DNA from: Candidatus Limnocylindrus sp.
GTDB taxonomy: Bacteria; Chloroflexota; Limnocylindria; Limnocylindrales; Limnocylindraceae
Direction: 5' to 3'
Length of the DNA stretch: 38,707 bases
Assembly (NCBI GenBank): GCA_046086645.1
Contig: JBJSXZ010000152.1
Location: forward strand, 1 to 38,707
Numbering within the stretch: the first letter of the stretch is position 1; each line of letters starts with the position of its first letter. Below the pieces are notes generated by a model. It was not told the origin of the DNA, searched no databases, and saw only the letters and a list, made by a program, of their open reading frames with translations. The position numbers and the translations under genes were made by a program. Shown in pieces: positions 1,624-5,884 of the stretch.

Positions 1624-2232
1624 TCATGCAGATGGCGGTGCGGCGCGATCGAGATCGGCGAGCGCAGCAATGGTACGTTGTGCCAGTTGTGCGCGTGTTT
1701 CAGACTCTTCGATATAGGGAAGATTTGCCTCAACGTTCTCAGCGGCACTCCGTCCAGCGGCACGCGCAAAGCGACGCGCAACCTCAAGATCACTTGCGGC
1801 ACTTGCGAGCGACCGGTCTGTTAGCGCGGCTGCATCGTTCGCAATGGCAGTTGCAACTTGGAGTGTTTGCAGGGGGACTTCCGCTGCGCGCACTGCAGCG
1901 GCAGAAATCGCAACAGTGCGAGCCTCGCGCTCTTCGTTCGTGTTCTTTGGTAGGCGGAGCGCTTCAATGAATCCGGAATATGCAGCCGCATCGTCGTCGG
2001 CGTACTGGAGGAGTGTCATGCGCGCTGCTGCAGCACGATCGCGCGCTCCCTGCTGTAGCGCGGCATCGCCCCCATCGGGTTGCTTGGAAAGAGAGAGGCC
2101 GGCAACCATCTCGACGAGTGCGGCAGCCATGCCAGTGGCAACTGCGGCGGCCGACCCGCCGCCCGGCGCGGGGGTTGGCGCCGCAAGGGACGCAAGGTAG
2201 CTGGCAAGTGACTGGTCGGCAGGTTTCTCCAT
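1624..2232 (-). CDS. fchA: methenyl-THF cyclohydrolase / cyclodeaminase-family protein (FTCD C-terminal-like)
   Basis: ORF 1624..2331 trimmed to MEKPADQSLASYLASLAAPTPAPGGGSAAA. The GGGS motif and all-alpha sequence are typical of the cyclodeaminase/cyclohydrolase family. Context is folD and fhs. Confidence 0.78.
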   Translation of the reverse strand: MEKPADQSLASYLASLAAPTPAPGGGSAAAVATGMAAALVEMVAGLSLSKQPDGGDAALQQGARDRAAAARMTLLQYADDDAAAYSGFIEALRLPKNTNEEREARTVAISAAAVRAAEVPLQTLQVATAIANDAAALTDRSLASAASDLEVARRFARAAGRSAAENVEANLPYIEESETRAQLAQRTIAALADLDRAAPPSA

Positions 2233-2267
2233 CTGCCGATCGTAGCGGTGCGGCCGAGCCGCGGGTG

Positions 2268-2585
2268 TTAGGCGTGGCTGAGCACGCCTCCTGGCACCGC
2301 AACCGTTGACGCAAATGGCAGCGTCGCCCATGCATCGTCGAACGCCTCGATGCGCCAGGTTCTTGTCCGCTTGGCAAAGCTCAGCACGAGCGCGGCATCC
2401 TCGGTCTCAAGCTCCCAGAGGGTTCGTGGCCCAGTGGCGGCAGAAAAGACGCCCTGCTCGCGGCGGAGGGCGAGCACGCGGGTGACCTTGCGGGTGACCC
2501 CAGCGAAGGAGATCGCCTGTGGGGCACCCGTACGCCAGTGCGCCGTGACTGCCGCCTGGACTGGAACGATCGGTTGCATTGCCAT
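2268..2585 (-). CDS. hypothetical 105-aa protein, candidate SOS-regulated gene
   Basis: ORF 2268..2585. A strong SD GGGAGGAG (rc of 2594-2601) lies 8 nt before the ATG, and two LexA boxes plus a TTGACA lie upstream on the same strand. No TM segment and no motif I recognise. Confidence 0.6.
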   Translation of the reverse strand: MAMQPIVPVQAAVTAHWRTGAPQAISFAGVTRKVTRVLALRREQGVFSAATGPRTLWELETEDAALVLSFAKRTRTWRIEAFDDAWATLPFASTVAVPGGVLSHA

Positions 2586-2620
2586 CTCAATACTCCTCCC
2601 GTGTGGGGCTCCTGCTGATA

Positions 2621-2632
2621 GAACATCTGTTC
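2621..2632. promoter_or_regulatory. LexA (SOS/Cheo) box 1, GAACATCTGTTC
   Basis: Perfect GAAC-N4-GTTC palindrome in the orf105/rplI divergent intergenic region. It sits in the context ATAGAACATCTGTTC, shared with box 2. Confidence 0.8.
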
Positions 2633-2650
2633 TGCATGGCTAGTGTCATA

Positions 2651-2662
2651 GAACATCCGTTC
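2651..2662. promoter_or_regulatory. LexA (SOS/Cheo) box 2, GAACATCCGTTC
   Basis: Perfect GAAC-N4-GTTC, 30 bp centre to centre from box 1. It lies directly beside a TTGACA on the minus strand (rc of 2665-2670). Confidence 0.8.
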
Positions 2663-2733
2663 GGTGTCAAGAGGTGTTTTATGCGAGAATGACCACCTGC
2701 CAGCCGGCCACCCACCATGAAAGGAGCAGCGCC

Positions 2734-3180
2734 ATGAAGGTCATCCTCACCGCAGTTGTCCCGAAGCTCGGCAAGCCCGGCGACGTCAAAGAGGTTGCTG
2801 GGGGGTATGCCAAGAACTACCTCATCGCCAACGGCCTCGCCCTCCCCGCCAGCGATGGGAGCGCCAAGAAGATCGGGGACGCCATTGCCGCCCGCGTGCA
2901 AAAGGGCGAACGAGCCCGCAGCGAGAGCGAGGCATTCGCCCAGAAGATCAGCGCCACCATCCTCACCATGGGGGTAAAGGTCGGCGAGGGCGGGAAGCTC
3001 TTCGGTTCGGTAACGACCAAGGAGATCGCCGAAGCACTTGCCCGACGCGGCCTCGATATCGATAAGCACCAGGTGTTGCTCGACGAGCCTCTGAAGCAGC
3101 TCGGCTCGTACAAGTTGCAGGTGAAGGTTGCGCCGCATCTCGTCTCCGAGGTGACCGTCGTCATTGAACCAAAGGTCTAG
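2734..3180 (+). CDS. rplI: 50S ribosomal protein L9
   Basis: ORF 2674..3180 trimmed to MKVILTAVVPKLGKPGDVKEVAGGYAKNYL, the canonical L9 N-terminus. SD AAAGGAG lies upstream of ATG 2734. Confidence 0.9.
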   Translation: MKVILTAVVPKLGKPGDVKEVAGGYAKNYLIANGLALPASDGSAKKIGDAIAARVQKGERARSESEAFAQKISATILTMGVKVGEGGKLFGSVTTKEIAEALARRGLDIDKHQVLLDEPLKQLGSYKLQVKVAPHLVSEVTVVIEPKV

Positions 3181-3218
3181 CTACGCCTCCTGTCAGCGGG
3201 GTTCTTGGTCGTCGCATC

Positions 3219-4355
3219 CTGCACGTAGACCTTGATGCCTTCTTCGCATCGGTTGAGGTGCGCGACAACCCTGCGCTCGCCGGCAAACCGATTGCCGTCG
3301 GGTATAGCGAGGGCCAGCGTGGCGTCATCTGCGCCGCATCCTATGAGGCACGTGCATTCGGTGTGCGCGCAGCAACATCAACGCGCAGCGCGCTAACACG
3401 CTGCCCGCAGCTCATTCTCGTCGAACCACGGCACGATCGTTATGCGGAAGTTTCGCGCGAGGTCATGGAGGTGCTCAGCGCATGGTCACCAGTCATTGAG
3501 CAGGTGAGTGTCGACGAGGCGTACCTTGACCTTGGTGGTACCGAGCAACTGCTTGGATCTCTTGAAGATGCGGGACGTGGCTTGCGACGCGCCGTGCGCG
3601 CAGAGACTGGGCTGACAATCAGTGTGGGTGGAGCGACGAGCAAGGTTGTCGCCAAGGTCGCCTCTGATGCATCAAAGCCTGATGGGCTGCTTATCGTCCC
3701 GCCCGGGACTGAAGCAGCCTGGCTCGCCCCGCGCAAGGTAGGTGTAATCCCAGGTATCGGTCCTGTTGCCCGCGCAACGCTGCATGAACTTGAAATCACC
3801 ACGTGTGGGGATCTTGCCGTTGCCCACGACGATCACCTTTTGCGACGCTTTGGTCAGCACGGACCAACGTTGAAAAACCTTGCGCGCGGCATCGATGTGA
3901 CGCCGGTCGATGATGGGGGCGAGAGAAAGTCGCTCGGCCGCGAGATGACGCTCGATGAAGATGCATCTGATCCCGACATCCTTGCAGCACTTCTGCTCGG
4001 GCTAGTTGAAACCGTTGCATACGGGCTCCGCAGTGAAGGGCTCCTCGCTCGAACCGTCACCTTAAAGCTGAAGGACACCGAGTTCCAGACCGTCATCTGC
4101 CAGGTCAAACTCCCGCGACCAAGCGATCTCGCAGGTCCGATCTACGAAGCGGCGCGCGCCTTATTGCGTAAGACGGCGAAGGGGACCGCCTACCGCCTGA
4201 TCGGCATATCCGTCTCTGACCTTGGCGCGGATGAGCAACTTGGCCTGTTTGACGCCGCGCACTCTGCGCGTGACCGAGCGCTTACGAATGCGGCGGACAT
4301 CATGCGAAAGAAGTACGGGGACACGGCCGTGACGCGCGCGCGATTGATCGACTAA
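3219..4355 (+). CDS. dinB: DNA polymerase IV (Y-family), start codon unresolved
   Basis: ORF 3258..4355 has Y-family motifs (SYEARAFGV, SVDEAYLDL, SIGGATSKVVAKVASD). The same frame is open from 3168 and encodes ILHVDLDAFFASVE, the catalytic N-terminal motif, upstream of the first ATG/GTG/TTG. I place the start provisionally at CTG 3219. Confidence 0.85.
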   Translation: MHVDLDAFFASVEVRDNPALAGKPIAVGYSEGQRGVICAASYEARAFGVRAATSTRSALTRCPQLILVEPRHDRYAEVSREVMEVLSAWSPVIEQVSVDEAYLDLGGTEQLLGSLEDAGRGLRRAVRAETGLTISVGGATSKVVAKVASDASKPDGLLIVPPGTEAAWLAPRKVGVIPGIGPVARATLHELEITTCGDLAVAHDDHLLRRFGQHGPTLKNLARGIDVTPVDDGGERKSLGREMTLDEDASDPDILAALLLGLVETVAYGLRSEGLLARTVTLKLKDTEFQTVICQVKLPRPSDLAGPIYEAARALLRKTAKGTAYRLIGISVSDLGADEQLGLFDAAHSARDRALTNAADIMRKKYGDTAVTRARLID

Positions 4356-5204: not shown

Positions 5205-5233
5205 TTGACAAAATTCCGAACAGCCGTTCTAAT
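5205..5233 (+). promoter_or_regulatory. lexA promoter with embedded LexA box (GAACAGCCGTTC at 5218-5229)
   Basis: TTGACA (5205-5210), a 17-nt spacer, then TCTAAT (5228-5233). A perfect GAAC-N4-GTTC spans the spacer and the -10. The ATG of lexA begins 7 nt after the -10. Confidence 0.7.
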
Positions 5234-5239
5234 AAGGGC

Positions 5240-5884
5240 ATGACGAAACATGAGCACAACCGGAAGGCGCGAATCCTCCAGGCCATCGCTGAGGGGGTGC
5301 GCCGGAATGGCACCCCTCCAACCGTGCGCGAGATTGCCGACTTCGTCGGGCTCTCGGCCCCCTCTGCCGTCCACCATCACCTGGAGACGCTCGAGCGGGA
5401 GGGTTTGATCGAGCGCGGCGCTGGGCTCTCGCGCGCCATTCGCCTCACCTCACGCGCACACGCCCTCCTCGAGATCGACGAGATCGAGCCGGTTTCAGCG
5501 CCGATGCGCGCGCGCGACCTTGTCGTCGTGGGCCAGATCGCTGCAGGCGGCCCCATCGAGGCGTACGAAGAGCGCGCCGAGACCGTTGCCGTGCCAGAGT
5601 TCATGTCGACCCCCGACTCCTATCTCCTGAAGATCCGCGGCGACTCTATGATCGAGGCGCAGATTGCCGACGGCGACTACGTGGTGATTAAGCCTGGAAG
5701 TGTGGCGAGCGATGGTGACATCGTTGTCGCTCAGGTTGAAGAGAATGCCGTCACGCTGAAGCAGATCTTCCGCGAGCAGGGGCGCGTGCGGCTCCAGCCA
5801 GCGAATAAGTCGTATCCGCCGATGTACTACCCAACGGTGACCGTGCAGGGCGTGCTCGTGGGAGTTCTGCGCCGCGTTCACTAA
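5240..5884 (+). CDS. lexA: LexA repressor
   Basis: ORF 4997..5884 trimmed to MTKHEHNRKARILQAIAEGVRRNGTPPTVREIADFVGLSAPSAVHHHLETLEREGLI (wHTH). It has an AG cleavage-site region (VVGQIAAGGP) and an S24 peptidase domain (GDSM...VTLK). Confidence 0.95.
   Translation: MTKHEHNRKARILQAIAEGVRRNGTPPTVREIADFVGLSAPSAVHHHLETLEREGLIERGAGLSRAIRLTSRAHALLEIDEIEPVSAPMRARDLVVVGQIAAGGPIEAYEERAETVAVPEFMSTPDSYLLKIRGDSMIEAQIADGDYVVIKPGSVASDGDIVVAQVEENAVTLKQIFREQGRVRLQPANKSYPPMYYPTVTVQGVLVGVLRRVH

Follow-up and report, generated by a model that had tools for sequence, protein, structure and literature searches.

A gene behind two LexA boxes beside a Y-family polymerase gene in Candidatus Limnocylindrus probably encodes a divergent standalone ImuB-C-like protein

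The orf105 locus and its LexA boxes

We analysed a 38.7-kb stretch of DNA (the window) from Candidatus Limnocylindrus sp., a member of the class Limnocylindria of the Chloroflexota. The window contains a small minus-strand gene, orf105 (orfX where the homologous loci of other genomes are considered), which lies behind two perfect LexA boxes and beside the gene of a DinB-like Y-family polymerase. The gene and its control region comprise the following elements:

2268..2585, minus strand: orf105 (orfX), encoding a 105-amino-acid (aa) protein, predicted all-beta, that is probably a free-standing ImuB-C-like domain (related to DUF6504) followed by a variable tail with the end ...SHA
2593..2600, minus strand: Shine-Dalgarno (SD) sequence GGGAGGAG, read from the sequence, 7 nt before the orf105 ATG (2585)
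2621..2632, palindrome: proximal LexA box (box 1), reading GAACAGATGTTC in the orientation of the gene and spanning about +3 to +14 of the predicted transcript
2642..2647, minus strand: predicted -10 element GACACT, 17 nt after the -35 element
2651..2662, palindrome: distal LexA box (box 2), reading GAACGGATGTTC in the orientation of the gene, in the spacer between the -35 and -10 elements
2665..2670, minus strand: TTGACA, the -35 element of the orf105 promoter, unchanged in all 86 distinct upstream regions

Read on the forward strand, the proximal box is GAACATCTGTTC (2621-2632) and the distal box GAACATCCGTTC (2651-2662). Both are perfect GAAC-N4-GTTC palindromes embedded in the common context ATAGAACATCYGTTC, as the original prediction had described them. 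In minus-strand order, TTGACA (2670-2665) is followed by 2 nt, box 2, 3 nt, GACACT (2647-2642), 9 nt and box 1; another 20 nt lead to GGGAGGAG (2600-2593) and 7 nt more to the ATG at 2585. Box 2 thus occupies the promoter spacer and box 1 lies between promoter and SD sequence, which is the geometry first proposed, with an SD-to-ATG spacing of 7 nt in place of the 8 nt given there. The predicted transcript start near 2635 leaves a 5' leader of about 50 nt with a strong SD sequence.

The window holds three perfect GAAC-N4-GTTC sites against 0.59 expected, and three of 100 shuffled sequences reach that number. The third site belongs to the lexA promoter:

5218..5229, palindrome: single LexA box of the lexA promoter (autoregulation), GAACAGCCGTTC, 10 nt before the lexA ATG
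5240..5884, plus strand: lexA, with Pfam matches LexA_DNA_bind and Peptidase_S24

This promoter has the same layout as that of orf105, but with one box only. The position of the third perfect site directly before lexA supports the motif against noise and marks it as the LexA operator of the organism. A LexA motif of the GAAC-N4-GTTC type is also reported for Dehalococcoides, a member of the Chloroflexi. The motif is that of Gram-positive lineages (PMC3323433).

A consensus promoter scan of positions 2100-3300 found no promoter and did not accept the GACACT hexamer. Such a scan misses a promoter with a weak -10 element, and the promoter call therefore rests on conservation: in the aligned upstream regions TATGACACT is conserved past the box and is the basis for the predicted -10 element, and relatives from soil carry TAGTGT or TACGGT at the equivalent position.

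Conservation of orf105 and of its promoter

The closest orthologues keep the length of 105 aa, share 64-75% identity with orf105 and are annotated solely as hypothetical proteins of Candidatus Limnocylindrus or Chloroflexi metagenome-assembled genomes (MAGs). Nucleotide differences among orthologues number 45-61 at third codon positions against 16-24 at each other position, and the GGAGGAG core of the SD sequence is kept across the upstream alignment. The orthologues, the third-position bias and the conserved SD sequence establish orf105 as a real gene, conserved as coding in line with its original prediction.

Three sets of loci were compared, consisting of 18 loci from close relatives, loci from 80 species-representative genomes with more distant homologues (25-40% identity), and four loci with the most divergent family members. 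The second set came from searching 1.84 billion proteins with a profile and from scanning GTDB genomes. The GTDB scan located the family in 318 species genomes, nearly all of them MAGs of Limnocylindria or Chloroflexota, a distribution indicating that the family is confined to the class Limnocylindria. A tblastn search of plasmids with a divergent family member gave no match. Some database entries had to be set aside: apparent fusions, P0094 (543 aa) among them, result from read-through out of frame in GC-rich DNA and are not real, and the N-terminal extensions of P0001, P0010 and P0015 are the translated LexA-box region and not true N-termini.

All loci have perfect or near-perfect boxes closely upstream of orfX. 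At least two perfect boxes lie within 160 nt of the start in 84 of 95 distinct loci and one box in three; the remaining eight include some with boxes 166-197 nt upstream. Across 822 kb of loci, 172 of the 220 perfect boxes sit in the short upstream windows of orfX, and most of the others precede lexA. A box also stands upstream of lexA in every related locus that reaches this gene. The orf105 promoter carries one LexA operator more than that of lexA. In the most divergent relatives we find one box, or a box and a one-mismatch box, in a TTGACA-17-TATTGT or TAGGCT promoter.

The boxes are held in a fixed relation to the promoter. TTGACA lies exactly 2 nt 5' of the distal box in each of the 86 distinct upstream regions, a TAnnnT-like hexamer follows this box after 3-4 nt, and the second box comes another 7-22 nt on. 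The proximal box is almost invariant, reading GAACAGATGTTC or GAACAGACGTTC in orthologous loci. The distance between the boxes is 23 or 30-36 bp among relatives, with a mode of 34. The 30-bp spacing of about three helical turns that was first pointed out is therefore correct for the window and is not conserved, and helical phasing of the two boxes was rejected as a design principle. What is conserved, to judge from the alignments, is the occupancy of the spacer and of the transcript start, the boxes being fixed relative to the -35 element, the -10 element and the predicted start.

As far as sequence can show, orf105 is repressed by LexA through a double operator in its own promoter, and this design is kept throughout the class. 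The proposal of a tightly repressed gene is upheld to the same extent, and the footprint of GAAC-N4-GTTC boxes upstream of orthologues, put forward as its check, is present. LexA should accordingly bind this promoter and orf105 should be induced after DNA damage.

Relationship of the orf105 family to ImuB-C

Sequence searches of the PDB with family profiles gave nothing useful. When 61 family members were scanned singly against Pfam, DUF6504 was the only recurring family, matched by six of them. The best match (P0032, E-value 1.7e-4, 22.3 bits) covers residues 18-80 of the protein and positions 24-100 of the 103 in the profile.

DUF6504 corresponds to the C-terminal domain of ImuB (ImuB-C). 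A consensus of the ImuB C-terminus, used as a query, led to 741 plasmid records, in which genes annotated as 'DNA polymerase Y family protein' stand beside genes for 'error-prone DNA polymerase'. DUF6504 matches residues 411-488 of one such plasmid ImuB, and in Afipia pHCG3 the ImuB that follows an 'ImuA family protein' is called 'DUF6504 family protein' by PGAP. The match and the naming together support the identification.

A profile-profile alignment of the 61 family members with 11 ImuB C-termini (hhalign) gave a probability of 69.6% and an E-value of 4.2e-5 over 76 collinear columns, to be read against a usual acceptance level of 90-95% probability. The alignment spans family residues 7-82 and positions 20-106 of the ImuB-C profile and ends in a common R-W strand. 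Reversed and column-shuffled controls reached at most 1.6% probability, with E-values of 0.03 or higher. W77, R41 and E43 are invariant in the family, R54 and R73 nearly so, and W77 aligns with the tryptophan of the ImuB R-W-F motif. In the original description (Aravind et al. 2013; PMC3765255), ImuB-C is a beta-rich domain with a conserved C-terminal tryptophan and two basic residues, a signature that W77 and the basic residues R41, R54 and R73 fit. Homology of the orf105 family to ImuB-C is thus likely but not proven.

The gene context of ImuB-C resembles that of orf105. Standalone ImuB-C is most often paired with a DinB gene, often together with LexA (PMC3765255), and Timinskas and Venclovas (2019) describe modules of an active PolY and a standalone ImuB-C, in some cases with lexA (PMC6511836). 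Geobacter has a lexA-imuB-C-polY operon that is damage-induced (PMC3765255, PMC6511836). A survey from 2026 models ImuB-C as a beta-barrel without relatives in the PDB (PMC12926913). A literature search returned nothing on DUF6504, PF20114 or Limnocylindria in combination with LexA.

Predicted fold and C-terminal tail

AlphaFold2 models built with 17 and with 61 homologues are consistent, with predicted local distance difference test (pLDDT) values of 78.9 and 81.3. They show a soluble all-beta domain of six long beta-strands over residues 3-83, followed by a disordered tail. Foldseek searches of the PDB with both models gave no hit with an E-value below 0.1; the top hits were the lysostaphin SH3b domain and profilin, with template modelling (TM) scores below 0.35. 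The PDB copy searched contains no ImuB-C structure, and an all-beta domain without a PDB relative agrees with the description of ImuB-C, a domain of some 80-100 residues made of beta-strands only (PMC12926913, PMC6511836). In BFVD, Foldseek found one marginal neighbour, A0A8S5PG70, an uncharacterised 100-aa protein of Siphoviridae sp. cthL03 (E-value 0.034, TM score 0.51-0.53 over 87 columns), which hints that the modelled fold may also occur in phages.

The family has a near-universal C-terminal alanine on a tail that varies in length and sequence beyond the domain. Alanine is the last residue in 216 of 227 distinct members and Ala-Ala the last pair in 189 of 227, with an overall alanine content of 11.4%. 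Ending in Ala-Ala is the hallmark of ClpX degrons of the ssrA type. The N-terminal fragment of LexA is cleared through an exposed C-degron that depends on ClpXP (Neher et al. 2003, as cited in PMC5742171). Given such an ending on a variable tail, proteins of the orf105 family may be short-lived through a C-terminal degron.

Another explanation of the same gene is a lineage-specific SOS effector unrelated to ImuB-C, such as an inhibitor of division or replication or a modulator of RecA, which would be harmful if leaky and cleared through its Ala-Ala end. The window protein is recognised by no curated family, the similarity to ImuB-C is sub-threshold, and the family is limited to one class, with the 318 species genomes given above; a double operator and a degron-like C-terminus are typical of harmful, transient SOS proteins. 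However, DUF6504 is the sole recurring Pfam match, the profile-profile match runs collinearly through the whole domain and far exceeds its controls, and signature residues and fold class fit ImuB-C. The known small SOS effectors SulA, YneA/ChiZ-type proteins, DinI, UmuD and YolD gave no Pfam or NCBIfam match, Foldseek returned no match to UmuD', SulA or DinI, and the protein has no transmembrane helix. An unrelated effector would also leave the constant adjacency to a Y-family polymerase unexplained. We consider it rather unlikely.

Gene neighbourhood and the target of the boxes

The genes on either side of orf105 are as follows:

2682..2690, plus strand: TGCGAGAAT, probable extended -10 element of the divergent rplI-dinB promoter
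2734..3180, plus strand: rplI (ribosomal protein L9), the divergent neighbour, with Pfam matches Ribosomal_L9_N and L9_C
3183..4355, plus strand: dinB-like Y-family polymerase gene, the proposed partner, with Pfam matches IMS, IMS_C and IMS_HHH
1624..2232, minus strand: fchA (FTCD_C cyclodeaminase), Pfam match FTCD_C, 35 nt downstream of orf105, with folD next

A dinB gene adjoins orfX in every locus that extends upstream, and lexA is usually near. This adjacency is seen in the window, the Limnocylindrus loci, about 80 soil species and the most divergent relatives; one locus (L100) has the order lexA-dinB-orfX.

In the window, the boxes might mainly serve the divergent rplI-dinB genes, with dinB as the canonical SOS target and orf105 as a bystander or a secondarily co-regulated gene. 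Here and in close relatives dinB starts about 20-40 nt from the rplI stop and has no promoter or canonical start of its own, and the distal box ends 23 nt upstream of the rplI -10 region TGCGAGAAT (2682-2690), so that bound LexA could occlude the rplI -35 region. The fixed point of the boxes is nevertheless the other promoter. ATTCTCGCA is invariant in the upstream alignment, but its spacer to TTGACA, and with it the distance from box to rplI -10 element, differs by 7-8 nt between groups, whereas the distance to the orf105 -35 and -10 elements is invariant, and the proximal box lies within the orf105 transcript. Soil Limnocylindrales have the order rplI-dinB-[boxes]-orfX-fchA-folD-fhs on one strand. 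In these roughly 80 species dinB and orfX are on the same strand, and the boxes lie 3' of dinB and cannot control it; since they stand directly upstream of orfX, this gene is their conserved target. Control of rplI-dinB as the main role of the boxes is thus quite improbable, and a secondary effect of LexA on these genes may exist in the genus Limnocylindrus. Compared with the soil Limnocylindrales (L019-L098), Limnocylindrus has the rplI-dinB segment in inverted orientation (window 2268-4355).

On the other side, orfX stands immediately upstream of fchA-folD(-fhs), with the order orfX-fchA-folD-fhs in 96 of 103 loci. This arrangement would suit an SOS-inducible one-carbon folate operon (orf105-fchA-folD-fhs) that supplies folate or nucleotides during repair, with orf105 as its first gene. 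The 35-nt gap in the window contains no significant hairpin, which makes read-through from the SOS promoter into fchA-folD possible and, on this explanation, likely. Across relatives, however, orfX and fchA are 35 to over 2,600 nt apart, some relatives carry psiE or other genes in between, and a strong conserved hairpin directly follows orfX in 76 of 84 soil Limnocylindrales loci (it is absent from the window). A TAnnnT hexamer 6-8 nt before the fchA start is conserved (TACGAT, 2244-2239, 6 nt before the ATG in the window) and suggests that fchA-folD have a leaderless-type promoter of their own. Similarity of orf105 to folate-related proteins was not found. The operon explanation is therefore highly improbable.

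Among the close relatives, some (L001-L008, L014-L018) have psiE inserted after orfX and before fchA; the window does not. The element that follows orfX in the soil loci (L019:5277-5366) consists of a first hairpin with a CCCUCCC loop and a second with an 11-bp stem, in which the CCGGUAC loop and the closing GC and CG pairs are invariant and compensatory changes occur at nine of the 11 stem pairs. Rfam contains no family that matches this element, and no known RNA was found in the region or in the orfX-fchA gaps. The element could be a terminator without a U-tract, a protein-binding hairpin or a regulatory RNA in the 3' untranslated region.

Unlike orf105 with its leader, fchA and lexA have TAnnnT-like -10 elements only 4-8 nt before their start codons: TAATAA before lexA (5205-5239), TACGAT before the window fchA, and TACAAT or TAGGAT before fchA in relatives. 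This pattern suggests that leaderless mRNAs are common in the class Limnocylindria.

In 14-19 soil loci, dinB is directly preceded by one or two open reading frames (ORFs) of some 400 aa (L101:1151-3648; L019:2365-3576), and in L101 the stop of the second overlaps the dinB start. The window has no homologue of these ORFs, and they gave no Pfam or PDB sequence match; they may also belong to the module.

The neighbouring DinB-like polymerase

The dinB product keeps the catalytic motifs HVDLDAFF and SVDEAYLD. Its C-terminus reads ...QLGLFDAAHSARDRALTNAADIMRKKYGDTAVTRARLID, in which QLGLF is followed by RALTNAADIMRKKYGDTAVTRA. By eye, the latter stretch resembles the motif K-ALxxALxQIEKQFGKGSIMRLG of the RecA N-terminus. 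In active PolY proteins paired with a standalone ImuB-C, a RecA-NT-like motif follows the clamp-binding motif of the polymerase (PMC6511836).

No ATG, GTG or TTG occurs between the upstream in-frame TGA (3165) and the conserved N-terminus RRILHVDLDAFF of the polymerase. Homology begins at about 3201, some 20 nt from the rplI stop (3178-3180), with an in-frame ACG at 3183-3185. Six related loci also have no canonical dinB start; an in-frame ACG is present in all of them and a CTG in most. These features suggest that dinB either starts at a non-canonical codon or is translationally coupled to rplI; its protein is cut short by gene callers.

A third LexA-like box before dinB, TGAACCAAAGGTCT at 3165-3178, was considered and set aside. 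With two mismatches, an overlap with the final codons of L9 and no conservation in relatives, it is probably due to chance.

Discussion

We propose that orf105 is probably a LexA-repressed, highly divergent standalone ImuB-C-like accessory subunit of the neighbouring Y-family polymerase. The best reading of the loci is a module of lexA, a Y-family polymerase and an ImuB-C-like protein that occurs throughout Limnocylindria, with orf105 as its LexA-controlled member. This proposal joins direct observations, namely the operators and their conservation, the coding status of the gene, its neighbourhood, the class of its predicted fold and its remote similarity in sequence, to a predicted LexA binding and induction, a putative physical partnership of orf105 with DinB and a putative degron.

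Several findings weigh against it. The window protein itself has no match in Pfam, NCBIfam, PHROGs or PDB sequence searches, and every DUF6504 match among its relatives stays below the Pfam gathering score of 24.2 bits. An hhalign probability of about 70% is suggestive and not proof, and it falls to 7.3% with the eight closest (Limnocylindrus-type) sequences alone. Comparison of a hidden Markov model (HMM) with single sequences reached 14.3 bits at best; the window protein scored 7.8 bits, and the top-scoring reversed decoy 6.6. At its C-terminus the window protein has His-Ala in place of Ala-Ala. The RecA-NT-like stretch of DinB was seen by eye only, and a BLASTP comparison with the N-terminus of E. 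coli RecA was not significant. A perfect LexA box belonging to dinB is missing in most loci. Lastly, fchA-folD-fhs adjacency to orfX is as well conserved as that of dinB, so that the neighbourhood alone fails to single out the polymerase.

The closest known counterparts are the standalone ImuB-C proteins that are paired with an active Y-family polymerase, such as the GSU0042-like proteins encoded by the Geobacter sulfurreducens lexA-imuB-C-polY operon (PMC3765255, PMC6511836). Both proteins are small and beta-rich (about 90-105 aa), with a conserved C-terminal tryptophan and basic residues. Both are encoded beside a catalytically intact DinB-like polymerase and near lexA, under SOS control (predicted for orf105), and for both the predicted role is a non-catalytic recruitment or regulation of translesion synthesis. 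They differ in that the similarity of orf105 is seen at the profile level only, below the DUF6504 threshold, and in that the orf105 family has a variable tail ending in Ala-Ala. Whereas the Geobacter gene lies within the lexA operon, orf105 has a promoter of its own with two LexA operators, and unlike in Geobacter the Limnocylindria polymerase gene is generally without a perfect box of its own. Limnocylindria, or Chloroflexota, are not among the lineages listed for standalone ImuB-C in the passages of the two papers that were consulted.

With the C-terminal domain of ImuB in the ImuA-ImuB-DnaE2 mutasome, orf105 would share the same putative domain, beta-barrel-like and ending in an R-W strand. 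In contrast to this ImuB, orf105 is free-standing and its partner polymerase keeps its catalytic motifs, and no dnaE2 or imuA was seen in the orfX loci. By analogy with UmuD' of Pol V and with YolD/YqjX, orf105 is plausibly a small, SOS-induced, proteolytically controlled all-beta subunit that licenses an error-prone polymerase. Unlike these proteins, it has no Peptidase_S24 or YolD match in Pfam, and Foldseek gave no UmuD' or SH3 match better than an E-value of 0.15; orf105 does not belong to their families.

On this proposal, RNA polymerase would be blocked in the undamaged cell by two LexA dimers on the promoter, one between the -35 and -10 elements and the other at the transcript start. 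Upon damage to the DNA, RecA would be activated, LexA would cleave itself, and orf105 would be transcribed. The protein could then bind the adjacent DinB-like polymerase, possibly together with RecA or DNA, and license or modulate translesion synthesis, as has been proposed for standalone ImuB-C. Once LexA is restored, a ClpXP-type protease would remove orf105 through its C-terminus and reset the system. With one operator more than lexA, orf105 may be derepressed later or repressed more tightly. Since dinB is mostly without a perfect box and, in the genus Limnocylindrus, is coupled to rplI and has no canonical start, the small subunit may be the regulated component.

A further pair of possibilities is entertained only tentatively. 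Either the similarity to ImuB-C is spurious and orf105 represents an unrecognised, class-wide SOS effector with a new fold, or it is ImuB-C-like and is the only switch by which damage licenses translesion synthesis. In the second, speculative case the polymerase would be constitutive, made in Limnocylindrus from the promoter of a ribosomal protein gene and with no canonical start codon, and the small subunit alone would be gated, its synthesis by the double LexA operator and its removal by the C-terminal Ala-Ala degron.

The original prediction had seen in orf105 an undescribed SOS effector, in the range of division inhibitors, toxins and mutasome parts. It holds insofar as no curated model recognises the window protein. 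The sub-threshold DUF6504 matches of its relatives (best E-value 1.7e-4), the ImuB-C profile match and a neighbourhood of a known type argue against an undescribed class. The evidence points to a mutasome part, and nothing supports a division inhibitor or a toxin. Most likely orf105 belongs to a known superfamily, as a mutasome-type accessory protein.

Few parts of bacterial mutagenic repair are as poorly understood as standalone ImuB-C proteins, for which no structure or biochemical function has been reported. The assignment of orf105 would extend them to an abundant freshwater and soil class of the Chloroflexota, with a member too divergent for the Pfam and NCBI models. If it is true, a wider DUF6504 model would be justified and more than 1,500 clusters of 'hypothetical' proteins would gain a name. 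The regulatory design is unusually clean in that the accessory protein, and not the polymerase, bears the tight double operator and a putative degron, and it would then offer a simple model of how cells license an error-prone polymerase.

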